From the IMG/VR virus record IMGVR_UViG_3300036856_000037: DNA of 52,665 nt; one strand, 5' to 3'. Shown piece after piece: positions 6,730-43,675 of this stretch. Position numbers and translations under genes: made by a program. The notes under the pieces are model-generated. The model saw only the letters and a list, made by a program, of their open reading frames with translations. It was not told where the DNA came from and ran no database searches. This DNA comes from a virus (taxonomy: Duplodnaviria; Heunggongvirae; Uroviricota; Caudoviricetes). Each line of letters starts with the position of its first letter. Position 1 is the first letter of the stretch.

Positions 6730-6801
6730 CTAGGAAAGTCGGAGAGACGAACTTGATCGCAGGAGCATCTGCAATCGTAATAGTCGCTGGTCAGCACGCA
6801 T
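6730..6801 (-). CDS. leaderless leader peptide of the Ser/Leu tRNA operon (MRADQRLLRLQMLLRSSSSLRLS)
   Basis: ATG 7 nt after TATAGT; contains all six Leu codons and five Ser codons. Confidence 0.75.
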   Translation of the reverse strand: MRADQRLLRLQMLLRSSSSLRLS

Positions 6802-6808
6802 GACAAGT

Positions 6809-6836
6809 ACTATAGCGCAACCCGTCGCGACTTCAA
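6809..6836 (-). promoter_or_regulatory. SigA-type promoter of the Ser/Leu tRNA operon
   Basis: TTGAAG-N16-TATAGT. Confidence 0.65.
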
Positions 6837-6918
6837 CACCCCAAAGTTACAGTCATCGACATCCGTATTTCGGGCTGTCATGACGGAGTATGGCGGTGCG
6901 TAACAGTACGCTCTGGGC

Positions 6919-7914
6919 ATGGACAACCTCGACCTTGTGTACCGCCGCATCACTGCGCGCCCATCTCGCCGTACACCGCCTTCCTTCCCCTTCCCTGATG
7001 GGACTGCACCGCGTGTCATCTCCACCCGGCTGGACGAAAACTCCGAACTGCCGGAAGCCGATGCGCTGGTGGTGACCTACACCGAGGCAGAGGGTGAGGC
7101 GCTGGCCGACATCCTGACACCCGGGACGCCGTTGCAGAACTGGACGGACTACAAGAACGGCTGGTCCATCATTCACCAGCTCATCGAAGGTGGCCGCGCC
7201 CCCTCTCTCTTCAGTAAGTGCGCCGGCCAGTGGGCACTCATCAGCATCGGTGACACCAAGGTGGTGGTGATGAAGTCCAACATGCACCCGGCGACGGACG
7301 GCCCCAAGCTCCCCATCGCGACAGCGTGGAAGCGCTGGATCAGTCAGGCCAAGCCCAAGCTCGTCATCTCCACCGGTACGGCGGGCGCGGTGCAGACCAC
7401 TACCCAGCTGGGCGACGTCATCGTGTCCAAGAACGTCAGCTGGGATTGTCGCAGGCAGTTTAAGAACGCCAGCTTCGCCGGCCAGAAGTACACCTCAGCA
7501 CTCCAGTTCGACAGCACGGGTATTGAGCGCGCGCTACCGCTGTTGAGTCAGACCACCCAACCGCTCCCTGGGCTCACACGGGCTCCGTCTCTGTGGCTGG
7601 ACAGCTCGGACCAACCGGCGCATGTCATCACCACTGACTTCTTCGCATTCGATGATGAGGAGAACAGCTACGGCCTACGGTCATTCGACCCGCAGGCGCG
7701 CGCGGTGGAGATGGACGACGCCGCGATGGCGATGGTGATGAGTGAGGTACAGATCCCGTGGCTCATTATCCGCAACGCCAGTGACCCGTGCATGCCGAAG
7801 GAAGCCACTGTCGAGCAGGAAGCCAAGGACGCCAGTCACATCTACGAGAAGTGGGGCCAGGTCACGTCCTGGGGTTCGGCACTCACCTGCTGGGCGGCAC
7901 TGGCCAAGAGTTAG
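6919..7914 (+). CDS. nucleoside phosphorylase / MTA-SAH nucleosidase superfamily protein (PNP_UDP_1)
   Basis: LVISTGTAGAV, LGDVIVS, VITTDFF, AVEMDDAAMA, IIRNASD; leaderless (TACGCT-N6-ATG). Confidence 0.85.
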   Translation: MDNLDLVYRRITARPSRRTPPSFPFPDGTAPRVISTRLDENSELPEADALVVTYTEAEGEALADILTPGTPLQNWTDYKNGWSIIHQLIEGGRAPSLFSKCAGQWALISIGDTKVVVMKSNMHPATDGPKLPIATAWKRWISQAKPKLVISTGTAGAVQTTTQLGDVIVSKNVSWDCRRQFKNASFAGQKYTSALQFDSTGIERALPLLSQTTQPLPGLTRAPSLWLDSSDQPAHVITTDFFAFDDEENSYGLRSFDPQARAVEMDDAAMAMVMSEVQIPWLIIRNASDPCMPKEATVEQEAKDASHIYEKWGQVTSWGSALTCWAALAKS

Positions 7915-7915
7915 G

Positions 7916-8071
7916 TCAAGCTGTCAGCTCACCCGCTGTGGCTTTACCTGACCTGATCCAGCCATGCCGACAGCCCACCCACGGGCAGTCAATTCCGTTG
8001 TCGAACCACATAACATAGCGGCCATCTTCAATTGAGTCATCGTCAATCCGGTGTCGCCCGGCGTTGTCCAT
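7916..8071 (-). CDS. hypothetical protein
   Basis: AGGAG RBS before ATG 8071. Confidence 0.55.
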   Translation of the reverse strand: MDNAGRHRIDDDSIEDGRYVMWFDNGIDCPWVGCRHGWIRSGKATAGELTA

Positions 8072-8072
8072 C

Positions 8073-8339
8073 TCACTCCTGTTCGTGCCGATAACTTTCG
8101 AGAACACACGCAGCGAAATGGCGGGCTACCTGTCCACGTTTTTCGTCGTCGTCCTCATAGCCGTGCTCGTCCAACTCGGCATCCAGTACCGCGACAAGGG
8201 CTTGCTCGAATATCGCGCTGGGTGTCCAGGTGACCCGGCCAACCGCGTGTCCTTCATCACGCAACGTCATGTCTAGCCAGGCGCACGTCGCTGCCGCATC
8301 GCTGTCGCGCTGGTCCTCAATCTCGATGGTGATTTTCAC
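8073..8339 (-). CDS. hypothetical protein
   Basis: GTGA overlap with upstream gene. Confidence 0.65.
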   Translation of the reverse strand: MKITIEIEDQRDSDAAATCAWLDMTLRDEGHAVGRVTWTPSAIFEQALVAVLDAELDEHGYEDDDEKRGQVARHFAACVLESYRHEQE

Positions 8340-8488
8340 CTGTAGTAGTCCTGTTCGTTAGCCGGGCACCAGCCCTTGAACGGAAGCTGGTCGTTGGCAA
8401 TGACCGCAGCCCAAATGTGGTTGAGGATCAAAGGCCAGCCTCGATAGTCAGGCCAGTTGCTGACGTGCAAAACAGTGGTGGCGCCCAT
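8336..8488 (-). CDS. hypothetical protein (50 aa)
   Basis: fills gap; coupled. Confidence 0.5.
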   Translation of the reverse strand: MGATTVLHVSNWPDYRGWPLILNHIWAAVIANDQLPFKGWCPANEQDYYR

Positions 8489-8489
8489 G

Positions 8490-8681
8490 TCATCTCCCGG
8501 TCGGGACGATCTTGGGCGCAGGGACGAACTGATATAGCGGCAGCGGTCGCTCTGCCCATAGCCGCGTCTGTCGGCCTAGGAATGCATCACGGTCGGCTTC
8601 GGTGCGGAAGCCGCGCCCGCGCCATGCGTAGACGGCGCGCTGTTCTGTGAGGCCGTAGACCTCAACGGTTGTGTCAATCAT
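8490..8681 (-). CDS. hypothetical protein
   Basis: AGGAG RBS. Confidence 0.6.
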   Translation of the reverse strand: MIDTTVEVYGLTEQRAVYAWRGRGFRTEADRDAFLGRQTRLWAERPLPLYQFVPAPKIVPTGR

Positions 8682-8693
8682 GGTGATAACTCC

Positions 8694-8969
8694 TTAGTTC
8701 GCCTCATGGCGGCGGCGTAGCCACTCACGTATCTTGCTCGCCTCCCAGTGAACTCCTGCCAGGTCAGGGTCTTGCTCTGTTGGCTCCAATGGCGGCAGCT
8801 CCTTGCGACACGCTAGGCAGATGGCGTAACGGATGGACCCGTCGTTCTCCACCACGTCATAGACATCCTTGTGCCGCCCTACCAGGCACCGAAGTCGCCA
8901 GGGCAACGTCGGACGCGCGACATGCGTCTGGATGCTCTCCCATGTTGATGTGCTCAAGTGAACTTTCAT
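8694..8969 (-). CDS. hypothetical protein
   Basis: ATGA overlap; C..GRH...CLAC motif. Confidence 0.6.
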   Translation of the reverse strand: MKVHLSTSTWESIQTHVARPTLPWRLRCLVGRHKDVYDVVENDGSIRYAICLACRKELPPLEPTEQDPDLAGVHWEASKIREWLRRRHEAN

Positions 8970-9211
8970 CTCTCCCCCATCTGATGTGCCAACAAAACGT
9001 CGTCCAAAAACTGCTCGCGATCATTTACCCACCGCTCCACCCGGCACGCCTTCGCAGGGCCGTTGAGCTCTCTCATTAAATTGAGGTACAGCAGCGCCGC
9101 GACCTCACCAGTCCGCAGAAAATGATGACGGCTCGCTTCCCATAAGACGTGTCCGTCGATGCAGGGAGTAAGTCCCTCAAGTCCTTCGATTTTCTCGAAC
9201 GTCAGTCTCAT
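8966..9211 (-). CDS. hypothetical protein (WEA...ALLYLN family)
   Basis: ATGA overlap; paralog of 9208..9369. Confidence 0.6.
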   Translation of the reverse strand: MRLTFEKIEGLEGLTPCIDGHVLWEASRHHFLRTGEVAALLYLNLMRELNGPAKACRVERWVNDREQFLDDVLLAHQMGER

Positions 9212-9369
9212 GGCTTCTGCTCCCTCATCGCGTTCAGGTACAGCAGTGCGCCGACGTTGCCATCCATTTGAAAGGCCAGGCGGTTGGCCTCCCACACCAC
9301 CATGCGTAAGCCCGCGTGGTTCTCAAAGATGGGGTAGGTGCCGGTGCTGGTGGTGACGAATTGGGTCAT
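9208..9369 (-). CDS. hypothetical protein (53 aa; WEA...ALLYLN family)
   Basis: ATGA overlaps at both ends. Confidence 0.6.
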   Translation of the reverse strand: MTQFVTTSTGTYPIFENHAGLRMVVWEANRLAFQMDGNVGALLYLNAMREQKP

Positions 9370-9692
9370 GCAGGATGCACCCCAGGTGGGCGATTTTGAA
9401 CGGTGTCTCGGAATCCATGGGTGGGGCAGTAAAACTGGGTTGTGCGGTCCTCTTCAACCTGCTCGCCGCAGTGGCAGTACCACGGGCCGGTGTGCTCGTC
9501 GTTCTCTTCCTCTGCGTCGAACAATCCGTCCAGCGGTAGGTGGAGGTTGAGGCTGACATACTGACCGTCTATTTCTCCCTCGTAGCACCCGTACCAACCG
9601 GAGGGGTATTTGAGCATTCTTACCGGCGTCCAGCCTTCGCCCTCACGGCTCTTACCCACGACGAGTTGAATCTCAACGTCAGTGCTTTTCAT
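9366..9692 (-). CDS. hypothetical protein with C-terminal Cys motif
   Basis: WYCHCG...FYCPTHG. Confidence 0.6.
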   Translation of the reverse strand: MKSTDVEIQLVVGKSREGEGWTPVRMLKYPSGWYGCYEGEIDGQYVSLNLHLPLDGLFDAEEENDEHTGPWYCHCGEQVEEDRTTQFYCPTHGFRDTVQNRPPGVHPA

Positions 9693-9930
9693 GCTGGTGC
9701 TCCCTAATCCGCCTGCGGAGCTTGAAGTCCCACCAGCCCACCGGACGCCAGACGGTGTAGCTACTGGACCAGACGACGTTGCCCGTTATCCGCTCGCCAT
9801 CCTCGGCGTACCACCACTGCTCACACACGTCGCACTGCCACAGCGTGCCGGGGTCATAATGGGTGCCCAAGTGTCCGCTTCTAGGTGTGTCGCAGGTGTG
9901 CTCTCTAGGCGGTGCTGGGATAAACGTCAT
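9679..9930 (-). CDS. Zn-binding hypothetical protein (HxC...WxCxxC...WxxVxWW family)
   Basis: GGAGG RBS; shares motif with 10845..11159 and 13014..13259. Confidence 0.65.
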   Translation of the reverse strand: MTFIPAPPREHTCDTPRSGHLGTHYDPGTLWQCDVCEQWWYAEDGERITGNVVWSSSYTVWRPVGWWDFKLRRRIREHQHEKH

Positions 9931-10172
9931 CAGTACTCCACCTCGGCAAATTCCCGGCGCTCCCTGCATTCCTGCCAGCGCGCCACCACTTCCTCTTCGT
10001 GGTCCAGCGGGTTGCTCCGACTCTCGAAACGGCGCGGCACCCGATAGGGGCTGCGCCGGGGGAAGGTCCACCAGGTGCCATCGTGGAACCACACTTGGCC
10101 CGCGGGCGACATGTCGCTGGGAGCCCAGTGGTGATGCCCCCGGTAGCACATCGCGCGAAACCACGCCTTCAC
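9930..10172 (-). CDS. hypothetical protein
   Basis: GTGA coupling. Confidence 0.6.
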   Translation of the reverse strand: MKAWFRAMCYRGHHHWAPSDMSPAGQVWFHDGTWWTFPRRSPYRVPRRFESRSNPLDHEEEVVARWQECRERREFAEVEY

Positions 10173-10381
10173 TGCGCACCCCCTTCCCTCAGCAGGTCCA
10201 ATATCCGGTTGACCTCTTCATTTCGTGCCTCAACCAGCGCGTGGTAGTCACTGGGCACCAGGTTGGTGAGGTCCTTGGCGAGGCTGAGGTTGAACATCGC
10301 CTGAAGAAGTTGCTTCTCCAGCGGGAGCCAGTTTGAGTCGGGGGGCTCAAACCACTCATCCTTTGCTCTGGTCAGGATCAT
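10169..10381 (-). CDS. hypothetical protein
   Basis: GGAG RBS. Confidence 0.55.
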   Translation of the reverse strand: MILTRAKDEWFEPPDSNWLPLEKQLLQAMFNLSLAKDLTNLVPSDYHALVEARNEEVNRILDLLREGGAQ

Positions 10382-10646
10382 GGTTCTCCAATCCCAGCGA
10401 GCTGATCCACTTGTAGTACAGCCGCAACGTGATGCCCCAGCGGGGGTCTTCATGCGTATTCATGTGGATCAGCGCGGTGAACATGTCGCTGAGTTCCTGG
10501 TGCTCTGGCGCGGTGTAGCCCGCAAGATAAGCACACCTGCCGCGGTGGAAGTCCCACATCCCTTGGTTGTCGGTGTAGGCCGTCGTGATTTCCAACTGAC
10601 CGAAGCAGATGCAGCACAGGCCGTTGGTGAGTTCAGGGCTGGCCAC
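10356..10646 (-). CDS. hypothetical protein
   Basis: AGGAG RBS before GTG 10646; CCIC motif. Confidence 0.6.
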   Translation of the reverse strand: MASPELTNGLCCICFGQLEITTAYTDNQGMWDFHRGRCAYLAGYTAPEHQELSDMFTALIHMNTHEDPRWGITLRLYYKWISSLGLENHDPDQSKG

Positions 10647-14181: not shown

Positions 14182-14316
14182 AAAAGGTGAACACAGTAGT
14201 AATACCCCTACCGCACGGCGTGTCGGGTCTGCTACAGTTGCGGCATGTTTGCGCGACCCGCCGCCCCACGACCGCCACGATGGCGTCGATATACTCGGGT
14301 TTGACGCGCGCAAAAA

Positions 14317-14355
14317 ATGAGGCGCTCTCCCCTCGGGTATATCTCCGGGGTGTAG
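14317..14355 (+). CDS. candidate leader peptide of the Pro/Trp/Tyr tRNA cluster (MRRSPLGYISGV)
   Basis: M-R start; CCC and TAT codons; ends inside tRNA-Pro; no SD, no Trp codon. Confidence 0.35.
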   Translation: MRRSPLGYISGV

Positions 14356-14421
14356 GGAAGTACGGTATCCCGCCTCATTTGGGATGAGGAAAACGCAGGT
14401 TCGAATCCTGCCTCCCCGACC
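14346..14421 (+). tRNA. tRNA-Pro(TGG)
   Basis: CCTCA-TTTGGGA-TGAGG. Confidence 0.92.
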
Positions 14422-14448
14422 TAAGCTCAAGCCCTTCTGCTCACCAAT

Positions 14449-14524
14449 AGGGGTGTAGCTCAGCGGCTAGAGCAGCGGCCTCCAAAACCGCCGGTCAAGG
14501 GTTCGAGTCCCTTCACCCCTGCCA
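14449..14524 (+). tRNA. tRNA-Trp(CCA)
   Basis: GCGGC-CTCCAAA-ACCGC (C31.A39 mismatch); encoded CCA. Confidence 0.92.
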
Positions 14525-14544
14525 CGTCAAGCCTTTCACTTCAT

Positions 14545-14626
14545 GCCGGCACCTGTTCATGCGGCGAGGACAGCGGACTGTAAATCCGTGGCGAAAGCTG
14601 TGCAGGTCCGACTCCTGCTGCCGGTA
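14545..14626 (+). tRNA. tRNA-Tyr(GTA)
   Basis: GCGGA-CTGTAAA-TCCGT; long V arm; T-loop TCCGACT. Confidence 0.85.
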
Positions 14627-14797
14627 CTCAACCCTGATACGGATGGCGCCGCTCTGTATGGCTGACTGGCCCACAGATGTCGCAGTGTCCCCGCATCGTG
14701 TAGGTATGCGCCGCGCCCCACTCCTCGCGGGTGTGGACGGTGAAGCTGAGATGCGGACACAGGTAACCCCTGAGCGTCACCGGGTCGGAGAACATAG

Positions 14798-17275: not shown

Positions 17276-17643
17276 GGCGTCCCCTCCTCGAGGTACTTTC
17301 CCTCCATCGGCGTCCGCGCGAACCACATGTCCGCCGGATCATGACAGTGCTGTACCCCCGACACGATGAATACCGCGCGCCGACCAGATTGCATCCGCAG
17401 CACAAATTCGTCATAGAGGTCGGGCCGCGGCGTGGTCCAGCCGTGTAAGCGGCGCTGTCCGTCCTCCACGCCGTCATAGACGATGTTGTCGCCCAGGGTG
17501 TTGTGGTCCGCCACCACCCATCGCCGGCCGGGGGGAGGTATCGGCAACTCAGGTTCCATGCGCCGCTGGAACTCCTCATAGCCCGCCGTCCAGCCAGCCA
17601 CGGCGCCAGCACACAGCGCCTTGGCCACCTCTTTGACGTCCAC
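17257..17643 (-). CDS. hypothetical protein
   Basis: TAGTG coupling to the methyltransferase gene. Confidence 0.65.
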   Translation of the reverse strand: MDVKEVAKALCAGAVAGWTAGYEEFQRRMEPELPIPPPGRRWVVADHNTLGDNIVYDGVEDGQRRLHGWTTPRPDLYDEFVLRMQSGRRAVFIVSGVQHCHDPADMWFARTPMEGKYLEEGTPCQATT

Positions 17644-18431
17644 TACCGTTCCTTCCGCCAGTACACGCCTGCCCAGTCGATGACCCGCAGCGGTTCTGAG
17701 ATACAGCACAGGTCACGGTACTCATCCACCGCGCGCCGACATGCATCAAAGCAGTGGTAGTCGTCCACGATGAGGTAGCCACCCACCGACAGCCGTGGGT
17801 AGAGGTACTCCAGCGACGTCATCGTGGACTCATAGAAGTCGCCGTCCAACCGCACCACCGCCAGCGGTGTCGTGCGCAATCGTGGGAGGGTGTCTTTGAA
17901 CCACCCCTTGACGAAGGTGACACCGTCACTGAGGCCGTAGCGGTCCAGGTTGGCCTGCACGCGCTCGAGCGACACCGCAATGCCATCGAAGTCCCAGTCG
18001 TTGAACGCCACGTCGTGCTCATGCTCACCCACCGGCATCCCCTCAAAGGAATCGGCGGCAAACACCACGCGGTTACTGATGCCGCGCGCTTTGAGGATGG
18101 CGCGCATGAGGATGAGACACCCGCCGCGCCAGACGCCCGTCTCGATGAAGTCGCCCGGGACGTCGTTGTCCAGCACGCGCTCCACGCAGAGCTGTAAATT
18201 GTCCAGCCGCTTCTGTCCCACCATGGTCAGCGCGAGCATGGGAACGTGGTCCTTGCCCACTGCGCGGTCGGCGGGGTCGACATCCGTGGTCAGCCGTGTC
18301 CCGTCAGGCAGAAAGCGTTGGAGCAACTTCTCCCTTCTGCTGGAGGGAAGCCAGATGTCGCCGTCGTGGTGCTCATACAGGGAGCAGGTCAGCGACTTCT
18401 TGACGGTGGCGATGTAGAGGTCGGGGTCCAT
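17643..18431 (-). CDS. TylF/MycF/NovP-family (macrocin-type) sugar O-methyltransferase
   Basis: TMVGQKRLDNL, VPGDFIETGVWRGG, ADSFEG, FVKGWFKDTL, VRLDGDFYEST, IVDDY. Confidence 0.93.
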   Translation of the reverse strand: MDPDLYIATVKKSLTCSLYEHHDGDIWLPSSRREKLLQRFLPDGTRLTTDVDPADRAVGKDHVPMLALTMVGQKRLDNLQLCVERVLDNDVPGDFIETGVWRGGCLILMRAILKARGISNRVVFAADSFEGMPVGEHEHDVAFNDWDFDGIAVSLERVQANLDRYGLSDGVTFVKGWFKDTLPRLRTTPLAVVRLDGDFYESTMTSLEYLYPRLSVGGYLIVDDYHCFDACRRAVDEYRDLCCISEPLRVIDWAGVYWRKER

Positions 18432-18435
18432 GGTT

Positions 18436-19371
18436 CTAGGCTCCCACCCTGACCCTGGGCGGCAAGTGGGCGGGGCGCTGTCCGGTGTGCACGTTGGCCA
18501 GGTTGAGGAAGCCGACTTCATCCGTGGTCAGCGCGAGTAATTGCGCCAGGTGGACATCACGCATCGGCAACACACCGTGGCGTGTCGTGGGATGCACACA
18601 CAGCGTGCCGCCACGCTGGCCATCAGGACGTATCCACTCGATGTTCCCCATGGTGCCGCGCTTGATCCGGTAGTGGCCACCGGCGGACCCCATCACCTCA
18701 AACTCTCCGTGTAGCCGGTAGGACTCCAACTGCCGTGCATCGAGCAGGGACAGCAACAGCTCCTCGGCTCTGCGTTCAGCGGCATTCGGGGTGTGGGCCT
18801 GACGCTCTCGCTCTATCCACTGGTTGCGGCCAATCCACTCCAGGCGCTCAGCTTCACGCTCCCGCCGTAGCTCCTCCTGGTTGCGACGCACGGCACGTCT
18901 GACGTTTTCTTCGACAGAGATAGGCCCTTGGACGGGGCTTGTTGCGTCCTCCATACTGCGGAGTGGTTGCTGCTGGGCATCCCAGTCATACAGCCCAGCC
19001 TCATGCTGGTGGATGTTGTGGATATTGATGTTATTGGTCGTGCCGTAGGCGGTGGCATAGGTCCACGTTGGCCAGGTAATCATGGTGGTGGTGGAAGTGG
19101 TGTAGTTGTAGGTCGGCACGGTGTAGCTCGTGGTGCCGCCGCTCCACATCAAATTGCTGGTGTACTGGTACCACATTGGGCGCTCAGTGATCCCCGAGTC
19201 ATCAATGCGCCCCAGGTCGACCCAGCCATTGTCGAATGTAAGGGCGCTACCCAAGACAGGAGGACTCGCCGTCCCATCAATAGCTAAGACGGTCTCGCCC
19301 TCCTGCGGACCTTCAGGCCCCGTGGTGACGGTGAGGGCGCCGTCCACGCCCTCACCGTCAGGCTCGGTCAC
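18436..19371 (-). CDS. hypothetical protein, C-terminal domain with LCVHP motif; partner of the di-Gly protein
   Basis: starts on the base after the upstream stop; AEELL..LL..Q...FEV.GS.G.HYRI...LCVHP...D.HLAQLLAL..DE..FL..AN. Confidence 0.75.
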   Translation of the reverse strand: MTEPDGEGVDGALTVTTGPEGPQEGETVLAIDGTASPPVLGSALTFDNGWVDLGRIDDSGITERPMWYQYTSNLMWSGGTTSYTVPTYNYTTSTTTMITWPTWTYATAYGTTNNINIHNIHQHEAGLYDWDAQQQPLRSMEDATSPVQGPISVEENVRRAVRRNQEELRREREAERLEWIGRNQWIERERQAHTPNAAERRAEELLLSLLDARQLESYRLHGEFEVMGSAGGHYRIKRGTMGNIEWIRPDGQRGGTLCVHPTTRHGVLPMRDVHLAQLLALTTDEVGFLNLANVHTGQRPAHLPPRVRVGA

Positions 19372-20383: not shown

Positions 20384-20410
20384 ATGCGTCGTGCGGTCTT
20401 TGTGCTTTGA
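20384..20410 (+). CDS. candidate leader peptide MRRAVFVL (Ala/Phe/Val codons)
   Basis: ATG CGT CGT GCG GTC TTT GTG CTT TGA ahead of Ala, Met, Phe and Val tRNAs; no SD. Confidence 0.5.
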   Translation: MRRAVFVL

Positions 20411-21450: not shown

Positions 21451-21591
21451 CGTCGGTCGATCAACGACATGCTCGTCGGCAAGGACTTTCTCGGTCGACC
21501 GACTTAAGCACGTCCTCCCAGAGCTGAGCAGAGTCAGACTGGCCCGAAAGGGGCGGCGGGGTTCCGCCCCACTACAACGAAAGGAACGACC

Positions 21592-21618
21592 ATGCGAAAG
21601 CAGATCACGCCCCGATAA
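21592..21618 (+). CDS. leader peptide MRKQITPR before tRNA-Lys(CTT)
   Basis: AAGGA SD; AAG at codon 3; 5' region homologous to the 43613 leader. Confidence 0.65.
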   Translation: MRKQITPR

Positions 21619-21621
21619 CAC

Positions 21622-21694
21622 GCGCCCGTAGCTGAGCCAGGTTTAGCTCCGTCCTCTTAAGTCGGAGACGCGGGTTCGAATCCCGCCGGGCGTA
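21622..21694 (+). tRNA. tRNA-Lys(CTT)
   Basis: CCGTC-CTCTTAA-GTCGG. Confidence 0.88.
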
Positions 21695-22888: not shown

Positions 22889-22901
22889 ACAAGGTGGAAA
22901 G

Positions 22902-22997
22902 ATGTACAAGACGGACGCGGACGCGCGGCCACTCGCCGCGCACCCGCCGTCTCCATGCCGCAGTAGCTTGTTGTTGGAATCAGCACCGACCTCGTAA
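22902..22997 (+). CDS. candidate leader ORF before tRNA-Thr(CGT)
   Basis: AAGGTGG SD; ACG at codon 4; runs into the tRNA. Confidence 0.5.
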   Translation: MYKTDADARPLAAHPPSPCRSSLLLESAPTS

Positions 22998-23365: not shown

Positions 23366-23560
23366 ATGATCAAGGCTGAGATCGACGGACGCAATATCGA
23401 GGTCGACTGCCATGAGCACGACACCAACCGGCTCATCAAGTGCGAAAACTGTGGCGACTCCCTGCGCGGCGTCCCCTGTGAGCCCGATGACCAGTGGGTG
23501 CGCCGGGTCGCCGACTGGATAACAGAGCACGTGCGTACAGCACATCCCACGTCCGCTTGA
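23366..23560 (+). CDS. small Zn-binding-like protein between Thr tRNAs
   Basis: GGAG RBS; CENC. Confidence 0.7.
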   Translation: MIKAEIDGRNIEVDCHEHDTNRLIKCENCGDSLRGVPCEPDDQWVRRVADWITEHVRTAHPTSA

Positions 23561-24001: not shown

Positions 24002-24520
24002 ATGAGCGATGCGACCTTTGGCAGCACCTTCAACGGCGGCCAGGGCATTCACGAATTGACCGGTGAGCCCTATCTGGCGGTCACCATTCACTCCTCCATC
24101 ATCGGTTGGCGCCACCGCAAAGGCGTGATGCAGAAAATCCTGTGGAAAAAGCACGTTGACGCCCGCGGGCGCACGTCCTACCGCGCGCGCAAGTGGCCCA
24201 ACATGCCCTTCACCCTGCTGACCCGGGCGCGGTATGCCCTGCGTCCCCAGCTGTGTGCCGTGGGCTTTCACCACCGCGCCGACATCACCGAGGTGGACGG
24301 CAGTGTGTGGCGCGCGGGCTGCCTGTCGTGCGACACGCTGGTCAGGCCACATAAGAAGCTTCCGGCCAACCCCAGCAGGGTGGCAGAACTACAGGCGCTC
24401 AATGCCAAGGCGGACAAGATGAGCGCCGCCATCGACGCCTACCTGGCGGGGGAGGGTCCGTGTCCGCACTGCGCCTACCCCGATGGGAAACATGAGCCCG
24501 GCTGCTGGGAGGCGGAGTAG
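24002..24520 (+). CDS. hypothetical protein
   Basis: 172 aa ORF; CLSC, CPHC. Confidence 0.65.
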   Translation: MSDATFGSTFNGGQGIHELTGEPYLAVTIHSSIIGWRHRKGVMQKILWKKHVDARGRTSYRARKWPNMPFTLLTRARYALRPQLCAVGFHHRADITEVDGSVWRAGCLSCDTLVRPHKKLPANPSRVAELQALNAKADKMSAAIDAYLAGEGPCPHCAYPDGKHEPGCWEAE

Positions 24521-25031
24521 CCCGCGTCTGCGCAGCACGCGCGACATACGTCAGCAACGTCGCCCTCGGCGTCACAGTTGCTGGAATCACCTCATCGTTG
24601 CGCCGTTGTGGCCGAAGCACGGTGTCAACCTCGGCACCATGTTGCGGACGTGTGATGCCGCGGGCGCGTGCTTGGCCGTCCCGAAACTCCCCTGGGTCAA
24701 GGAAGCATTGGCCAAGGGAAATACATTGCGCACTCCGTCGTGTGTGCACTGGATCTATGCCGATGTAGGCGACTGGCTGAAGCGTCAGCGGGAGGGAGGC
24801 TCTCTGGTGGTGGGGGTGGAATTGACGGAGGAGTCAGTGCGACTGGCCGACCTGCCGATGGCACGTCAGCGGACAGTCATCGTGCTGGGGAATGAGCGCA
24901 CCGGCATCCCCCAAGAAGGCCTGGAGCACCTGGACGTAGCGGTGGAGATTCCGATGATTGGCAGCGGTGACAGCCTTAATGTCGTCATCGCCGGGTCTCT
25001 GGTCCTCTACAAGCTAGCGGGCCTGGTCTAG
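24483..25031 (+). CDS. SpoU/TrmH-family (SPOUT) RNA 2'-O-methyltransferase
   Basis: NLGTMLRTCDA, VLGNERTGI, VEIPMIGSGDSLNV motifs; start uncertain. Confidence 0.9.
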   Translation: MGNMSPAAGRRSSPRLRSTRDIRQQRRPRRHSCWNHLIVAPLWPKHGVNLGTMLRTCDAAGACLAVPKLPWVKEALAKGNTLRTPSCVHWIYADVGDWLKRQREGGSLVVGVELTEESVRLADLPMARQRTVIVLGNERTGIPQEGLEHLDVAVEIPMIGSGDSLNVVIAGSLVLYKLAGLV

Positions 25032-27018: not shown

Positions 27019-27069
27019 ATGTTGATTCAGGGCATACGACGAATTAGGTCGCGGCGACAAAGCCGCTGA
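27019..27069 (+). CDS. leader peptide MLIQGIRRIRSRRQSR of the Ile/Arg/Gln tRNA cluster
   Basis: 11 of 15 non-start codons are Ile, Arg or Gln. Confidence 0.65.
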   Translation: MLIQGIRRIRSRRQSR

Positions 27070-27082
27070 CCTGCGTTTTCAT

Positions 27083-27156
27083 GCCCGTCTAGCTCATTTG
27101 GTTAGAGCGTCGAACTGATAATTCGAAGGCACCAGGTTCAAATCCTGGGTCGGGCA
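27083..27156 (+). tRNA. tRNA-Ile(GAT)
   Basis: TCGAA-CTGATAA-TTCGA. Confidence 0.92.
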
Positions 27157-27167
27157 CGCATGACCAA

Positions 27168-27241
27168 GCCTCTGTAGCTCAGCGGAGAAGAGCGTCCGAC
27201 TACGGATCGGAAGGCCGCGGGTTCGAATCCTGCTAGGGGCA
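27168..27241 (+). tRNA. tRNA-Arg(ACG)
   Basis: TCCGA-CTACGGA-TCGGA. Confidence 0.92.
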
Positions 27242-27284
27242 CGTGACTGGTAAGCGAATAGCGAGCGCGCACGACTACTTGCGC

Positions 27285-27357
27285 GCTCCTGGGGCTCACT
27301 GGTACGGGCGACGTTCTTATAAAACGGAGATAGCGGGTTCAATCCCCGCCAGGAGTA
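27285..27357 (+). tRNA. tRNA-Ile(TAT)
   Basis: ACGTT-CTTATAA-AACGG; A73. Confidence 0.85.
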
Positions 27358-27362
27358 CAGAG

Positions 27363-27503
27363 ATGAAGAAGACGATGCTGGTGCACCGCCATTGCGGTGC
27401 TCGCGTCATGGGTGGGAGCTACGGCACCTATTGCCCACGATGCCGTAAGTGGCTGGTCGGCCCCGCGGTCGACCAGGTTCGAAGGCGACGGTCTAGGACA
27501 TGA
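27363..27503 (+). CDS. small Zn-ribbon protein, in frame with an upstream GTG at 27243
   Basis: HRHCG...YCPRC. Confidence 0.55.
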   Translation: MKKTMLVHRHCGARVMGGSYGTYCPRCRKWLVGPAVDQVRRRRSRT

Positions 27504-27529
27504 GCGACAACCTGATGTCGCTATGCCTG

Positions 27530-27603
27530 GCCGTCGTAGCTGAAAAGGAACAGCGCCAGACTTCTAATCTGGGAAGATGCGGGTTCGAGTCCTGTCGGCG
27601 GCA
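27530..27603 (+). tRNA. tRNA-Arg(TCT)
   Basis: CCAGA-CTTCTAA-TCTGG. Confidence 0.9.
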
Positions 27604-27607
27604 CTGA

Positions 27608-27680
27608 TGAGGTGTGGGGTAAACGGCAGCCCGCCGGATTTTGGTTCCGGACAATGAAGGTTCGAGTCCTTCCGCCTCAG
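27608..27680 (+). tRNA. tRNA-Gln(TTG)
   Basis: CCGGA-TTTTGGT-TCCGG; U1:A72, G73. Confidence 0.9.
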
Positions 27681-27737
27681 CGAGGTGGCGGTCAATGCTG
27701 TGCGCGGACGCAATGTCCAGTCCGGCCGTCGCCCCAT

Positions 27738-27807
27738 GCCTTCGCCGGCGGACCCGGCGTCGAGCTTCCGAAGCTCGGTGGCGGCAGTTCAACTCTGCCC
27801 GGGGGCA
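27738..27807 (+). tRNA. tRNA-Arg(CCG), short D arm
   Basis: CGAGC-TTCCGAA-GCTCG. Confidence 0.78.
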
Positions 27808-27835
27808 CGGACTGTATCGCTGCGATACGCAATGT

Positions 27836-27907
27836 GCCGCCGTGGCTGAACGGAAAAGCACCCGCTTCCTAAGCGGACTTACGTGGGTTCGAATCCCTCC
27901 GGTGGCG
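27836..27907 (+). tRNA. tRNA-Arg(CCT)
   Basis: CCCGC-TTCCTAA-GCGGA. Confidence 0.88.
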
Positions 27908-27912
27908 CTGTC

Positions 27913-38151: not shown

Positions 38152-38368
38152 TGAAGCGCGCCTACCCCTACGTCACCCGCCATCAGTTTGCACACGGCCA
38201 TGGCTACACGCTTTTCTTGACACGAAGCGTCCACATGGAGCTAACGCCCGAGGAGTACGACAACCTCAAGGCGTCGATAGACGAGGTTACAGAATCAGAG
38301 AAGCCCCTCACACGCGAGGAGGTGGACGACATATTGGCGAGTATCGACCGTCCTCCAAGGGATTCGGG

Positions 38369-41300: not shown

Positions 41301-42604
41301 GCCGTCGCGGTGCTCGTCAGTTGCGCGAAGAAAGCGTTGGACGAGAAGTTGACGTTACCGTCCCACTCAGCAATGGTGCTGGCAGTCGGGGTTGCACTCC
41401 CGCCGCCGCCACTGGGTGTTGCCCAGGTGTTGTCACCACGCAGATACGTGGTGCTGGACGCGCTACCGGTACCCAGTTGGGTGGTCCCGACGACGCCCGA
41501 GGAGTTGAGGCCGGCATAACCGGAGTCCTGATTCTTGTTGCCCTGCCACTCCAAGGTGGCGTTGGACCCGGGGAATGTGATGGTCACGCCGTCAGTGCCC
41601 GACAACGTCAGGGAGTTATTGACCGTCAGCGCCTTACCGCTGGCGTAGATGCCGCCGAAGTACTGGCCGTCCCAGCCCGAGGAACTACTGGGCGCGTTGG
41701 CCAGCGCGGTGAAGATGCCACTTGTCCCCCCGGCCAGCGCCACCACTGTACTGGCACCTGAGGCCTGGACAGTCACCGCGCCGGTGCTGTTATTGATGAT
41801 GAAATACGTTGCGCCAGCGACGATTCCCGTGCCGGGCAGTTTCACCGTCTGGGTGCTGGTGCCGGTGAACACCTGGATCTGGTGACTGACGATGCTGAGC
41901 GTGGTGGTCCCGGCGGCGGTGGCGGTGCTGGTCAGGCTGGAGAAGAACGCATTGGCGCTCATGTTCACGTTGCCGTCCCATTCGGCAATCGTGCTGGCAG
42001 TGGGGACAGCACTGCCGGTGGCGCCGCCACCGCTGGCGCCCAGGAGTTCCAGGGCCGCCGCCGCGGTGCTGGCTGACACCAACGAGGCACCGAAGGGCGT
42101 GATGCTGTTGGGGAGCACCACGTTGGGCACCGTGCCGCCGTAGGCCAGCCGGGAGAGATTGGGGTCGGTGATGTTGACCGATGTGGTGTCTGAGGACGCG
42201 ATGAAGGCGAACGGCTGGATCTGCTGGTTACCCGTGGCATAGACGACGTTGGTGAAGGACACGTCGTAGATGAGACTGCCGATACCTTGCGCCGCGAGGT
42301 TGAGGACGGCCGAGTTGGCCAGCAGCTCCACACCGGTGGCCTGGGACTGGCCGATGGTCTCGAGCACCCCTTGGACGATGCGACCCTGGACGGCAGTGAT
42401 GGCGACGGCGGTGTTGGCGCTGTTGCCGCCCCCCAGGTCCAGGTTCTCCACATAGGTGGTGAAGCCGGTGGGGACACGAGGAGTGAAGGTGACAAGGCCG
42501 CTGACCACACCGAAGGCCGGGGCCGTTTGCTCCCCGTACAGCGGCGGGTTCTGGATGTCGTTGAAGTTGCCGGTGACGGTGAAGTACGTCAGCTCATTGG
42601 CCAT
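38369..42604 (-). CDS. tail fibre/spike: four ~200-aa repeats plus pectate-lyase-like beta-helix (depolymerase) domain
   Basis: repeats PTAST.AEWD.N.N..., NKNQ.SGYAGLNSSG, LRGDN.W; NVPENYGA.ADGTTDDTTAMQ...YKISS.L beta-helix start. Confidence 0.85.
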   Translation of the reverse strand: MANELTYFTVTGNFNDIQNPPLYGEQTAPAFGVVSGLVTFTPRVPTGFTTYVENLDLGGGNSANTAVAITAVQGRIVQGVLETIGQSQATGVELLANSAVLNLAAQGIGSLIYDVSFTNVVYATGNQQIQPFAFIASSDTTSVNITDPNLSRLAYGGTVPNVVLPNSITPFGASLVSASTAAAALELLGASGGGATGSAVPTASTIAEWDGNVNMSANAFFSSLTSTATAAGTTTLSIVSHQIQVFTGTSTQTVKLPGTGIVAGATYFIINNSTGAVTVQASGASTVVALAGGTSGIFTALANAPSSSSGWDGQYFGGIYASGKALTVNNSLTLSGTDGVTITFPGSNATLEWQGNKNQDSGYAGLNSSGVVGTTQLGTGSASSTTYLRGDNTWATPSGGGGSATPTASTIAEWDGNVNFSSNAFFAQLTSTATAAGTTTLTITSDQIQVLTGTTTQTVKLPTTSIPAGAQYWVINQSTGAVTVQASGGGTITILAGGTSGIFTATSATPTTTTGWSGEYFGISIASGKVLTVSNSLTLAGTDGNTLTVPSGGGTAEIQGNKNQNSGYAGLNSSGVVATAQLGSGSASSSTFLRGDNTWSTPGGSGVSGSTSPTASTAAEWDTNLNLAANAFLTSATSTATAAGTTTLTIASTQVQVFTGTTTQTVKLPTTSVPAGLQYQVINNSTGLVTVQSSGANTIVILGAGTSGIFSALTATPTTAANWDCQYLGLFAASGKYLTVNNSLTLAGTDGNTFTVPSGGGTGEVQGNKNQNSGYAGLNSSGLVAAAQLGTGSASTSTFLRGDNSWASPGAASGSTTPTASTIAEWDANINLSSNAFLAQMTSTATAGGTTTLTITSDQIQVFTGTTTQTVLLPTTSVPAGAQYQVINNSTGAVTVESSGANSIVVLGPNTNATFTALTATPTTAANWDCFYAVQSSAAWNVPENYGAHADGTTDDTTAMQAWLNNVYQNQGTGYLTPGKTYKISSALTLGTTGATTHYGSWTINGMGATISQATNGDEIFAFLAEDFNDFVIRNLNFAYASQQSSSNSSTGAISFDCTTTLGYGWWHGIFENLDFQGTCYRGIFLKETSGHQVSVWGCTFDNIRSEYGTTGSCIRLCGNGNVGMPANRFTAIYQDRNGCPSTEAMIRLTIQFSPVLSNLEVNESTNGGPDVYIDYSSNVRIDQFRTEIGSNNANDGILKFVQATGSVSNWEVSNRAYATNAGAVFDLSQSSKVDIGSGFISVYSVTMPGSNLAIVYLEDATCEVNWTGTPHGYNVSGTPIDIPGTSGILMYRLATSAALINPWTTSITSSATPTFNTDSTNTVLITALAAAITSMTSGMTGNPIDGQQLTFRFKDNGTARTITWGSKFAASGISGTLLGTTVVNKTHVVRFLYDTVKAAWVCIYQDTTGY

Positions 42605-42839
42605 GCCAGTTCTTTCCTGGAGCGACTGAGACGAGTCAACTCTATCGGCTGGGTAGCGACCAGACGGTTAACCTGCGCCGCTGTTTTGGCGGCTGTACGG
42701 CGCGTAGGCCGACGTTTGGCGCGGCGGCGGGGTATGTGTTGGGTATGGCTGACGACGAGAAGCAGGACGACAAGGACGACGAGAAGGTTGGGGACTTGAG
42801 CCGCGACCCCGACAGCGCAGGCAACTTCGTACCGCCGTT

Positions 42840-43538
42840 GTGGCTGGGGAAGATCATCAAGTTCGCCCGCGGTCGATAAAGTACCGTGAACGCGCTGTCG
42901 TCCTGCGTCACCAGCAGGCGCGGGAGCACGACTGGACCGTCACACTTCTGACGCGCGACCATCACGTCCTGACCGCACTGCTCAAGTACGCCCAGCGACC
43001 GTCGAACAGGTTGCGTCCCCGGCTTCGGGTCGGCGCGCATGTTGACGTGGAGTTGTACCGGGGGAATGTCATCACGCACGTCCAGCCGGTGGACGCGGTC
43101 CTCACTCACGCCTACGTCCCGGCCATGATGGAGGCGGCGGAGCTACTGGCTGAGGAAGGCCCGTGTGGTGACCTCTACTGGCTGACCGTCACGACACTGC
43201 GGGCCAAGGTGGCGCCGGGTCCGATGTTTGCCTCCTACCTCCTGCGCGCCATGGAGCTTTCCGGCTGGGGGCTGGCGCTGGCAGCGTGCGCGTGTTGTGG
43301 GGCACCGGGACCACACAAAGCGTTCCACGTCGCCGCCGGGGGGAGCGTGTGCCTGCGCTGTCGACCCCCGGGCGCCATCGTGGTGGAGTTGGAGTTGGTG
43401 GAGTTGCTGGCGGCATTGCGTGGGGAGAAGTGGGTGGTGGTGGAAGCCGCGCCGGCGAGCCTGGGCGCGCGCGCGACGGGGCTGATCGTGGCGCACTTTC
43501 AACAGCAGGTGGAGTGTCAGCTTGAGCGGTTGCCGTAA
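42840..43538 (+). CDS. recO: DNA repair protein RecO (actinobacterial type)
   Basis: YRERAVVLR, VTLLTRDH, YLLRAM..SGW..AL..CACCG.PGPHKAFHVAAGGSVC..CRP; start uncertain. Confidence 0.88.
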   Translation: MAGEDHQVRPRSIKYRERAVVLRHQQAREHDWTVTLLTRDHHVLTALLKYAQRPSNRLRPRLRVGAHVDVELYRGNVITHVQPVDAVLTHAYVPAMMEAAELLAEEGPCGDLYWLTVTTLRAKVAPGPMFASYLLRAMELSGWGLALAACACCGAPGPHKAFHVAAGGSVCLRCRPPGAIVVELELVELLAALRGEKWVVVEAAPASLGARATGLIVAHFQQQVECQLERLP

Positions 43539-43612
43539 CCTGCTACCGCACGCGGGTGGCGGCTGGTACTGTCATTGCCGTTACGTACCAGTCACTACGA
43601 GAGGAGCCGACC

Positions 43613-43675
43613 ATGCGACAGCATCGTAAACACGAGCCCGAACGCATGCAGAATAACGTCGGCGCTCGTAGCTGA
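43613..43675 (+). CDS. leader peptide MRQHRKHEPERMQNNVGARS of the Lys/Glu/Asn/Gln/Met tRNA cluster
   Basis: GAGGAG SD; AAA, GAG, GAA, AAT/AAC and CAG codons; pairs with the tRNA-Lys 5' strand. Confidence 0.7.
   Translation: MRQHRKHEPERMQNNVGARS

Follow-up and report, generated by a model that had tools for sequence, protein, structure and literature searches.

Codon-matched short ORFs ahead of tRNA gene blocks suggest stall-gated control of tRNA supply in a relative of Bxz1-group mycobacteriophages

The purpose and control of tRNA genes in large phages have been debated for decades. Amino-acid operon attenuators (thrL, ilvL/ivbL, leuL, hisL, trpL, pheL) have a short upstream ORF enriched in codons that report on supply, a feature shared by the locus described here. 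In the leaderless polycysteine sORFs of mycobacteria, a stalled ribosome blocks an RNA duplex and no antiterminator is needed (Canestrari 2020, 10.1101/834739). PMC13096801 describes how cleavage of tRNA-Cys by VapC4 in M. tuberculosis causes ribosomes to stall at Cys codons, at positions that can be mapped, and the title of Barth et al. 2021, as cited in PMC10264068, likewise concerns VapC4/tRNA-Cys stalling. In yeast, elongation slows at inhibitory codon pairs, the A site is left empty, and extra tRNA brings partial rescue (Tesina 2019, 10.1101/755652). The tRNAs of cluster C1 mycobacteriophages have been proposed to replace host tRNAs lost to VapC-type nucleases (van den Berg 2023, eLife, PMC10264068). 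A text search of that paper found no mention of leaders or attenuation, and our literature search found no paper describing leader peptides ahead of tRNA genes.

We analyzed a window of 52,665 nucleotides, the whole stretch of IMG/VR virus record IMGVR_UViG_3300036856_000037 (Caudoviricetes), with 37 tRNAs. An earlier note had pointed to seven mini-ORFs directly upstream of tRNA genes, and all seven are present where it placed them (Table 1). Its view of them as selected, translated sensor leaders is supported, as far as sequence can tell, by statistics, start signals, a CGA-X codon design and conservation. We think it reasonably probable that at least four tRNA units or subunits (Ser/Leu, Pro/Trp/Tyr, Ile/Arg/Gln and Lys/Glu/Asn/Gln/Met) open with a short translated, codon-matched leader that would impose stall-gated negative feedback on tRNA supply; the single tRNAs Lys(ctt) and Ile(tat) probably also have a leader. 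That the frames are translated, which way the system responds and at which step it acts are what we infer. Leaders A, N, B and C are strong, and E and G are plausible. The host genus is presumably Mycobacterium, as RecO is ~45% identical to Mycobacterium RecO and relatives infect M. smegmatis. RecO homologues are host-like mycobacterial proteins, the one further contig found to encode this RecO matches the window exactly, and two IMG/VR relatives found via the DUF3631 gene have no tRNA clusters.

Table 1. Positions of leaders, associated signals and tRNA blocks in the window
Feature	Coordinates	Strand	Description
tRNA block	5481..6725	-	Ser(gct), Ser(cga)-like element, Leu(cag), Leu(gag), Leu(caa), two small ORFs, Leu(taa)
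Leader A	6730..6801	-	23 codons; 7 Leu, 5 Ser, 4 CGA
Promoter-like site	6809..6836	-	TTGAAG-16-TATAGT; TATAGT to ATG 6801, 7 nt
-10-like hexamer	14233..14238	+	TACAGT; 6 nt before ATG 14245, leaderless arrangement
Leader N	14245..14304	+	19 codons; 4 Pro, 1 Trp, 1 Tyr in tRNA order; 4 CGA
Predicted 12-bp hairpin	14288..14343	+	5' arm formed by the CGA-TAT-ACT-CGG codons
tRNA block	14346..14627	+	Pro(tgg), Trp(cca), Tyr(gta); its own unit on the + strand, with - strand genes around it
Mini-ORF D	20384..20410	+	8 codons, doubtful; ATG within hairpin, then T-rich tail; no CGA
Leader E	21592..21618	+	8 codons; SD; begins M-R(CGA)-K(AAG)
ORF F	22902..22991	+	Before Thr tRNAs; rejected
Leader B	27019..27069	+	16 codons; 3 Ile, 6 Arg, 2 Gln; includes CGA-CGA, CGA-ATT, CGA-CAA
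Terminator-like stable hairpin	27030..27086	+	Predicted fold; -31.8 kcal/mol, z -4.6
tRNA block	27083..27908	+	Ile(gat), Arg(acg), Ile(tat), small Zn-ribbon-like ORF, Arg(tct), Gln(ttg), Arg(ccg), Arg(cct)
Mini-leader G	27243..27288	+	GTG is first base after tRNA-Arg(acg); CGA-ATA pair at 27255-27260
-10-like hexamer	43567-43572	+	TACTGT
Shine-Dalgarno-like	43599..43606	+	GAGAGGAG; 6 nt before ATG 43613
Leader C	43613..43675	+	20 codons; AAA, GAG, GAA, ATG, CAG x2, AAT, AAC
tRNA block	43662..44249	+	Lys(ttt), Glu(ttc), Glu(ctc), Asn(gtt), Gln(ctg), Met(cat)

Leader A uses every one of the six Leu codons and five different Ser codons, so that 12 of 22 codons are cognate (p 6e-5, amino-acid level), and its stop codon lies 4 nt from tRNA-Ser(gct). 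The promoter-like site in front is predicted to put the transcript start at the leader A ATG, which would make the transcript leaderless. The idea that leaders enumerate codons at the anticodon level holds in part, as leader A also has CTA, TCA, TCT and TCC, which are read by no called phage tRNA. Only the first of the two tRNA-Ser genes assigned to this block, Ser(gct), was recovered as such; the second, at 6545-6637(-), is only cloverleaf-like and was called by neither ARAGORN nor Rfam, whereas Alice, Rizal and Myrna have a genuine tRNA-Ser(cga) as its counterpart. An identical Ser/Leu tRNA order is found in Bixzunavirus and Myrnavirus, and leader A has homologues in Rizal, Alice, Melpomini, Myrna and Tonenili.

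In leader N, all 4 CGA codons directly precede a Pro, Trp or Tyr codon. The 3' arm of its predicted hairpin stops 2 nt short of tRNA-Pro, and the equivalent hairpin of Bxz1 has 11 bp with a compensatory change (GATATC/GATATC versus GATATAC/GTATATC here). A homologous R-P..P-R-W-R-Y core is present in Bxz1, Tonenili, Darko, Rizal and Shifa, and the layout is repeated in Bxz1 (TACGCT, 7 nt, GTG) and Rizal (TACCGT, 7 nt, ATG), while the Pro-Trp tRNA region is only ~68% identical in the phages bearing homologous leaders. Two competing hairpins were seen only in the Bxz1/Rizal Pro-Trp-Tyr leader. Searching with a degenerate pattern of the Pro-Trp-Tyr leader core yielded unspecific matches only. Leader N was absent from the earlier list, yet fits the pattern.

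Leader B starts at the first base past tRNA-Asp, and 11 of its 15 codons are cognate (p 5e-6, amino-acid level). It is the only leader with a terminator-like hairpin; those of the other leaders lack U tracts. A UUUU run (27076-27079) comes after the inner stem (27045-27073), the outer stem extends into bases 1 to 4 of tRNA-Ile, and the hairpin encloses the final codons and the stop of the leader, the stop lying inside the 3' arm. The ORFs after tRNA-Asp in Bxz1 and Tonenili contain Met and Val and no Ile, compared with three Ile codons in leader B; both phages also have tRNA-Ile(gat) behind this spacer. Judged by eye from the unfolded sequence, the tRNA-Asp spacer of these two phages contains a long hairpin. 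Mini-leader G has a single ATA codon with CGA ahead and no stop before tRNA-Ile(tat); its perfect 8-bp hairpin (27263-27270 with 27281-27288) overlaps bases 1 to 4 of that tRNA (duplex z -2.4).

Leader C, with 8 of 19 codons cognate (p 8e-4, amino-acid level), overlaps the first 14 nt of tRNA-Lys(ttt), and none of 845 natural short ORFs matches its enrichment. Related Gln/Asn leaders are found in Bixzunavirus and Phabba. Leader E is homologous to the 5' part of leader C and ends 3 nt before tRNA-Lys(ctt); only 1 of its 7 codons is cognate (p 0.12).

How could such leaders act? Their codons are those decoded by the tRNAs behind them, with the test codons typically right after CGA, and the 5' arm of a hairpin adjoining the first tRNA would often be built from the final test codons and the stop. 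We hypothesize that a stalled ribosome keeps this hairpin open and lets transcription or 5' processing of the tRNA block proceed, whereas a ribosome that runs through and leaves would allow the hairpin to form and damp expression. The phage would thereby place its own tRNA supply under negative feedback. Hairpins containing the last test codons have z values of -4.6 (leader B), -2.4 (leader C), and -2.8 and -3.8 (Gln/Asn relatives). A consensus scan detected no canonical terminator after leaders A, N and C, the minimum-energy and centroid folds of the window's leaders contained no mutually exclusive antiterminator, and an Rfam gathering scan of the whole window returned tRNAs only, with no leader family and no T-box. 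The earlier note had invoked another structure, pairing of the leader with the 5' acceptor strand of the next tRNA. Such pairing is present, but when the duplex energy between the 85 nt upstream and tRNA bases 1 to 9 was compared with shuffles, it was no stronger than in shuffled upstream sequence (z -0.3 for Ser, -0.9 for Pro, 0.0 for Ile(gat), +0.4 for Lys(ttt) and 0.0 for Lys(ctt)). Only 3 of the 37 tRNAs reached p<0.03, the leader-adjacent tRNAs were at chance, and in relatives the pairing was marginal and confined to the Ser family. As the hairpin stands beside the first tRNA, control over the later tRNAs of a block is not obvious.

The sign of the response is uncertain, since a tightly coupled ribosome would also block a hairpin that contains the stop codon. 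The logic could be the opposite, with efficient translation of the leader melting the hairpin and permitting tRNA expression (pyrBI-type coupling), which would create a checkpoint or positive feedback. The stop of leader B within the 3' arm of the terminator-like hairpin fits this idea, as do those of A, E and C, which lie 3 to 4 nt before, or inside, the first tRNA; with stops at these positions, a ribosome close behind RNA polymerase would occlude the structures when decoding fast. Nevertheless, nearly all test codons are no farther than a ribosome footprint from the 5' arm of the hairpin, which a stall would therefore also keep open, and positive feedback has no obvious use for a sensor of rare, slow codon pairs. 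Because, in addition, the host's known leaderless sORF switches turn on upon ribosome stalling, we regard the opposite logic as unlikely and favor negative feedback released by stalling.

Negative feedback of this kind presupposes that the frames are read, and their start signals and evolution are consistent with translation. In 9 of 9 leaderless-type leaders (window and relatives), the start codon has TANNNT 6 to 7 nt upstream; in the window, A and N have TANNNT, E and C have an SD, and B and G begin with the base that immediately follows a tRNA. Conservation bore out the earlier proposal: the Ser/Leu, Pro/Trp/Tyr and Gln/Asn leaders keep frame and codon family in Bixzunavirus and Myrnavirus, and one or another of them is found across Bxz1, Rizal, Alice, Tonenili, Myrna and Phabba. 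Between relatives, these leaders differ by 3-nt and 12-nt indels, all multiples of three, and by synonymous changes of Ser codons. Their p values range from 5e-6 to 2e-2, except for the Bxz1-type Pro/Trp/Tyr leader (5 of 22 codons cognate, p 0.13). Bxz1 and Tonenili have convincing leaders at their separate Ser/Leu and Gln/Asn units and a weaker one at Pro/Trp/Tyr; the enumeration test on their central tRNA region was not significant. Among five Bixzunavirus genomes, the Gln/Asn promoter and ORF show 0 differences in 55 positions, whereas tRNA-Asn differs by up to 22 of 77. The Bixzunavirus Gln-Asn leader has, of the test residues, only Q and N, and leader C, before a larger block, has K, E, M, Q and N. 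In both comparisons made, the content of the leader tracks the tRNA set.

Could the spacers instead hold RNA or DNA signals, such as promoters, processing hairpins or terminators between tRNAs, with frames that are incidental or not translated? Several spacers are strongly structured, the tRNA-Asp hairpin recurs in Bxz1 and Tonenili, mini-ORF D coincides with a hairpin and T-rich tail, and the Gln/Asn leader is invariant in nucleotide sequence within Bixzunavirus. Signals of this kind leave unexplained why codons match the downstream tRNAs cluster by cluster, why indels come in multiples of three and Ser changes are synonymous, why starts lie 6 to 7 nt past TANNNT or after an SD, and why an in-frame CGA always has a cognate codon next. 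We consider this explanation improbable.

CGA, a rare Arg codon, is decoded via inefficient I:A wobble. It makes up 14 of 88 leader codons, against a background of 0.9 to 1.9% (p 4e-14 to 1e-9), and, by our own count, 14 of the 25 leader Arg codons, against a genome share of ~11% among Arg codons. Wherever a sense codon follows a leader CGA (13 of 13 cases), it is a cognate codon, an outcome that 20,000 shuffles of codon order never reached. What the CGA-X design specifies is a codon rather than an amino acid. Every CGA in the inspected Bixzunavirus and Myrnavirus leaders directly precedes a test codon. When CGA plus own-codon hexamers upstream of tRNAs were counted regardless of frame, there were 8 versus 2.1 expected (reached in 1 of 2000 shuffles); out-of-frame CGAAAG copies near 21592 inflate this count, so we give it little weight. 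By analogy, CGA in the P site may make the dwell on the next codon especially sensitive to its tRNA; this P-site effect is documented for yeast, not for mycobacteria. We tentatively suggest, as a possibility short of an even chance, that Bxz1-group mycobacteriophages and their uncultured relative possess a codon-resolved feedback circuit in which CGA-X dicodon leaders gate each tRNA block. With the slow CGA in its P site, the ribosome would become sensitive to how much tRNA for codon X is present, and the phage would gauge and restore exactly the decoding capacities that are lacking, e.g., after attack by a host tRNase.

Arg-rich peptides are known RNA binders, and the leaders could encode small basic peptides that bind RNA or tRNA in trans, with the codon match secondary; indeed, in the five leaders with no tRNA-Arg in their cluster, 19 of 73 residues are Arg. 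We deem this very improbable, since the bias is for the CGA codon and not for arginine, the peptide sequences of relatives differ while codon families and CGA-X pairs persist, and the other residues follow the tRNA set.

The statistics were obtained from 43 short ORFs ending at most 200 nt upstream of the 37 tRNAs, enumerated without preselection. For enrichment in cognate amino acids, the best -log10 p was 5.28, compared with a shuffle maximum of 4.65, and the sum of the top three was 12.55, compared with 4.04 +/- 0.95 in shuffles. None of 1000 dinucleotide shuffles equaled the observed enrichment for downstream-tRNA amino acids, which puts the ORF set far above chance. The true assignment of leaders to clusters ranks first of 60,480 label permutations, also with Arg removed. 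Chance, through many short ORFs, flexible matching and post hoc choice, might be suspected because E, F and G (3 of the 7 listed ORFs) are individually unremarkable, each cluster's codon set spans 2 to 24% of codons, and CGA-rich short ORFs are also present elsewhere in the window, but for the ORF set as a whole it is ruled out by the unbiased enumeration and the permutation, and leader N, outside the earlier choice, and the homologous leaders in phages with diverged Pro-Trp tRNAs make it next to negligible.

The claimed loading with cognate codons was confirmed for A, B and C and is plausible for E and G; it is doubtful for D and was rejected for F. Mini-ORF D, put forward as an Ala/Met/Phe/Val sensor, has 4 of 7 codons cognate (p 0.03), and the hairpin and T-rich tail that it overlaps explain it better; the hairpin is more likely the end of the Cys-His-Gly-Ala unit. 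ORF F, whose ACG was to serve Thr(CGT), is not enriched (1 Thr codon in 28), and its frame enters the tRNA. Other Thr-rich frames (a GTG at 22894; 23412-23522, p 0.007, which lies in another frame of a likely gene) were judged to be chance because they have no stop before the tRNA or lack start signals. In the upstream regions of this window, no convincing leader was found for the Cys-His-Gly-Ala, Gly-Asp and Thr tRNAs.

If our interpretation is true, phages monitor decoding capacity codon by codon, their tRNA arrays are tied mechanistically to tRNA loss or codon mismatch, and leader-peptide control extends from amino-acid metabolism to the translation apparatus. Should the CGA-X design prove functional, it would offer a natural bacterial case of a codon pair serving as a regulatory amplifier. 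Leaders are present in the cultured M. smegmatis phages Bxz1, Alice, Rizal, Tonenili and Myrna, which makes the idea testable at the bench.

How does this locus compare with the known systems? As in classical attenuators, there is an upstream ORF with start signals and an enrichment, beyond chance, in codons matched to the product; one leader would sense several amino acids, and the hairpin overlaps the leader end. In contrast to these attenuators, the genes behind the leader are tRNA genes, so that the sensed species would be the product; the test codons are spread and paired with CGA rather than forming a run, and several synonymous codons are listed. The four-segment terminator/antiterminator and a match to a curated Rfam leader family are absent, and a terminator-like stem with a U run is seen in B only. 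T-box riboswitches differ as well, as there is no Rfam match and the triplets lie in frame between start and stop. With VapC4, the locus would share the readout, in which specific loss of a tRNA to a host tRNase leads to stalling at matching codons; that work concerns a stress response of the host with an output other than tRNA genes, and it is not known to bear on phage tRNAs. In yeast pairs of the CGA-CGA type (10.1101/755652), the inhibitory codon slows decoding of its neighbor, and here CGA stands directly before the test codon; those pairs involve eukaryotic ribosomes and quality control, whereas use as a sensor, and the effect in mycobacteria, would be extrapolated from them. The study of van den Berg (PMC10264068) deals with the same phage group and its tRNA genes, and its analysis addresses anticodon loops. 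With the polycysteine sORFs (10.1101/834739), the locus shares the presumed host genus and, as predicted, would share the leaderless AUG/GUG start and the parallel response of several loci, and the 5' arm of the duplex lies within reach of a stalled ribosome (the 12-bp stem of N, leader B and the Gln/Asn relatives). In the mycobacterial case, the ribosome-binding site of a downstream protein gene is masked by the duplex, and Cys is the sole amino acid sensed; in the phage, the downstream element is the 5' end of a tRNA, many codon sets are represented, and the leaders are encoded by a phage.

The seven mini-ORFs that the earlier note had listed as codon-matched leaders ahead of tRNA genes are all present as described. 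Our enumeration, drawn up independently of that choice, covered all ATG, GTG and TTG ORFs of 6 to 45 codons on the tRNA strand that end no more than 200 nt upstream of a tRNA gene (n = 43), and each ORF was scored for codons that match, by amino acid, any tRNA gene beginning in the next 1.5 kb. The three top ORFs are candidate leaders B and A and the frame of leader C. The predicted excess over shuffled spacers was borne out: the best ORF scored 5.28 against a shuffle maximum of 4.65 (0 of 1000 dinucleotide-preserving shuffles equal), and the top three together gave 12.55 versus 4.04 +/- 0.95 in spacer shuffles, a sum reached in 0 of 1000. When six leaders are scored against nine cluster sets the matrix is diagonal, and none of the other 60,480 permutations scores as well as the true assignment of leaders to clusters, which holds with Arg removed from leaders and sets too. 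Among the 845 natural short ORFs in the window, a number that includes the leader itself, 0 to 2 are equally enriched for a strong leader's own set.

Features of the window and two tRNAs of related phages
Feature	Coordinates	Strand	Remarks
Leader A	6801-6730	-	before Ser/Leu block; 12/22 codons cognate, p 6e-5
Leader N	14245-14304	+	42 nt before Pro-Trp-Tyr
Leader B	27019-27069	+	before Ile/Arg/Gln block; 11/15 codons cognate, p 5e-6
Leader C	43613-43675	+	before Lys/Glu/Asn/Gln/Met block
Short candidate ORF	21592-21618		before Lys(ctt)
Paralogous Lys leaders	21560-21630 and 43583-43670		
12-bp stem	14288-14299 / 14332-14343	+	predicted fold; Bxz1 equivalent 11 bp with compensatory change
Hairpin	27030-27086	+	z -4.6, 0/200 shuffles; inner stem then UUUU
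tRNA-Ile, anticodon TAT	27285-27358	+	CGA-preceded ATA 25 nt upstream
73-aa GGQ-motif protein	5680-5901	-	within Leu tRNA block; RF-1 domain release factor family phrog_3122, E 3.5e-37
Cloverleaf-like element	6545-6637	-	Ser-type acceptor stem, UUCGAAA anticodon-loop-like sequence
TylF-type macrocin O-methyltransferase domain	17643-18521	-	PF05711, E 4e-87
SpoU-family RNA 2'-O-methyltransferase domain	24483-25031	+	PF00588, E 2.6e-21; between Thr and Gly/Asp tRNAs
RecO homologue	42840-43538	+	complete (RecO_N + RecO_C); directly upstream of leader C
Rv2525c-like glycoside hydrolase + LysM protein	51313-52641	-	
tRNA, anticodon CTA, Tonenili	8395-8466		amber suppressor-like; annotated tRNA-Stop or tRNA-like
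tRNA, anticodon CTA, Bxz1	2937-3009		amber suppressor-like; annotated tRNA-Stop or tRNA-like

Leader N was absent from the earlier list. Its peptide, M-F-A-R-P-A-A-P-R-P-P-R-W-R-R-Y-T-R-V, has its Pro, Trp and Tyr residues arranged as the tRNAs are, and a TACAGT hexamer lies 6 nt before its ATG. The Pro-Trp-Tyr unit is isolated on the plus strand amid minus-strand genes.

A new observation of this analysis is the use of CGA within the leaders. CGA makes up 14 of the 88 internal leader codons, against a background of 0.9% in long ORFs and 1.9% in all frames (p 4e-14 and 1e-9), and 14 of the 25 leader Arg codons by our own count, versus a genome share of 11%. Wherever CGA is followed by a sense codon, that codon is cognate to the cluster (13/13; equalled in 0 of 20,000 codon-order shuffles), the pairs being CGA-CTA, -TTG, -TCA and -CTT; CGA-CCC, -CCG, -TGG and -TAT; CGA-AAG; CGA-CGA, -ATT and -CAA; and CGA-CAG. 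The bias concerns a codon and not an amino acid, which speaks for an effect on decoding rather than one exerted through the peptide. CGA is decoded by tRNA-Arg(ACG) via I:A wobble. In yeast, inhibitory codon pairs slow elongation and leave the A site empty, and extra tRNA gives a partial rescue (Tesina et al., 10.1101/755652). We infer that CGA followed by a cognate codon (CGA-X) may be the sensing unit.

The shorter ORFs fared unequally. Those at 21592 and 27243 are individually insignificant, but both fit the CGA-X design; in the 27243 frame the sole CGA stands directly before ATA, which is the codon of the tRNA that follows, Ile(tat). The TAT anticodon reads ATA directly and is unusual, as bacteria normally read this codon with a lysidine-modified CAT tRNA. 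We rejected the ORF at 22902, with one Thr codon in 28, and that at 20384 (p 0.03, no CGA), whose ATG lies within a hairpin followed by a T-rich tail; this element is more simply read as the end of the Cys-His-Gly-Ala unit. No leader was found for the Cys-His-Gly-Ala and Gly-Asp units, and the -10-like hexamers seen there by eye (TATAGT, TAGTAT) lie only ~10-14 nt before the first tRNA.

The window has 61% G+C and 37 tRNA genes in about eight groups. Megablast of the phage collection found no close relative; the RecO-like gene is ~45% identical to RecO of Mycobacterium and Mycolicibacterium, and the C-terminus of the 1411-aa protein resembles mycobacteriophage proteins. Block for block, the tRNA gene order matches that of Bixzunavirus and Myrnavirus (cluster C mycobacteriophages), in Ser(gct)-Ser(cga)-Leu(cag)-Leu(gag)-Leu(caa), Pro-Trp-Tyr and Gly(gcc)-Asp-...-Ile-Arg(acg); Gln(ctg) and Asn(gtt) are adjacent in both, in reversed order (Asn-Gln in the window versus Gln-Asn in the relatives). 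Hence, we conclude that the virus is an uncultured, distant relative of Ceeclamvirinae. Its RecO was apparently picked up from the host lineage.

These cultured relatives carry corresponding leaders. The Pro/Trp/Tyr leader starts with GTG in Bxz1, Tonenili and Darko and with ATG in Rizal and Shifa, a 12-nt indel separating the 5' halves of the two groups; in all five, a -10-like TANNNT hexamer precedes the start by 7 nt, the second codon encodes Phe and the core CGA-CCC ... CGA-TGG-CGA-TAT is kept. The Ser/Leu leader reads M-F-A-R-L-S-L-S-S-S-L-R-L-S in Rizal, Alice and Melpomini, differs by one change in Myrna and has a variant in Tonenili (enrichment p 5e-6 to 5e-4); its three central Ser codons show synonymous differences among variants, and its end, Leu-CGA-CTT-Ser-TAG, is common to the relatives and the window. 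The Gln/Asn leaders of Bixzunavirus (M-R-T-S-S-Q-Q-N-R-Q-Q) and Phabba (M-R-T-N-R-L-N-R-Q-Q) differ by a 3-nt indel, start 7 nt after TACAGT and end in AAT-CGA-CAG-CAG-TAG (p 5e-5 and 5e-4). The Gln/Asn promoter and ORF show 0/55 differences across five Bixzunavirus genomes, in which tRNA-Gln and tRNA-Asn differ at up to 7/75 and 22/77 positions. Only Gln and Asn codons precede the two-tRNA unit of Bixzunavirus, whereas Lys, Glu, Met, Gln and Asn codons precede the six-tRNA unit of the window; in this comparison, putative leader content follows tRNA content. In cluster C phages with a CTA-anticodon tRNA, the Ser/Leu, Pro/Trp/Tyr and Gln/Asn leaders all stop at TAG.

Within the window, the leaders before the two Lys tRNAs are homologous, and the stop codon of 21592 aligns with the AAA codon of 43613; the longer leader seems to have arisen by a change of TAA to AAA. 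The segment after this site is similar in sequence to the other tRNA-Lys at its 5' end. In the central tRNA arrays of Bxz1 and Tonenili the enumeration test was not significant, and their post-Asp ORFs are suggestive only (p 0.08-0.18). Start codons placed right behind a tRNA (Asp or Arg), on the first or second base past its 3' end, occur at 27019 and 27243 in the window, 6807 in Bxz1 and 12079 in Tonenili. Possibly, tRNA 3'-end cleavage would yield a leaderless mRNA there, making the translation start dependent on processing.

The GGQ protein may rescue stalled ribosomes in the manner of ArfB, and the SpoU-family protein could be a phage tRNA-modifying enzyme. In Tonenili, a gene annotated as peptidyl tRNA hydrolase adjoins the Pro-Trp-Tyr tRNAs. 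The cloverleaf-like element, called by neither ARAGORN nor Rfam, sits where Alice, Rizal and Myrna have a genuine tRNA-Ser(cga) and Tonenili a similar uncalled element, and may be a decaying or atypical tRNA. The LysM protein is probably a cell-wall hydrolase (lysin).

How might the leaders act? The earlier note had proposed that they sense a starved codon, the stalled ribosome covering a strand that pairs with the acceptor strand of the next tRNA. The pattern is real and conserved, and the reading of the ORFs as sensors is well supported; the pairing is not: for Ser, Pro, Ile(gat) and both Lys tRNAs, shuffled upstream sequence gives equal duplex energies, and in relatives the energies were marginal for Ser only. 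Instead, predicted hairpins recur in which the final test codons, in many cases together with the stop, form the 5' arm, and the 3' arm runs up to the first tRNA and ends just short of it; the Gln/Asn hairpins have z -2.8 (Tonenili) and -3.8 (Phabba). Downstream of leaders A, N and C, a consensus scan for terminators came back empty. Because every tRNA of a block is represented by codons in its leader, control of the whole block is expected, which would take the form of read-through or of ordered processing of the precursor.

Full-text literature searches turned up no account of tRNA genes preceded by leader peptides, and an eLife paper that deals with host tRNases and the tRNAs of cluster C1 phages (PMC10264068) mentions neither leaders nor attenuation. 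What the window adds is an actinophage lineage with cultured members, a putative leaderless architecture and the CGA-X rule. Its leaders are closer to the mycobacterial leaderless sORF switches, where ribosome stalling keeps an RNA duplex from forming (Canestrari et al., 10.1101/834739), than to a trp-type four-segment attenuator.
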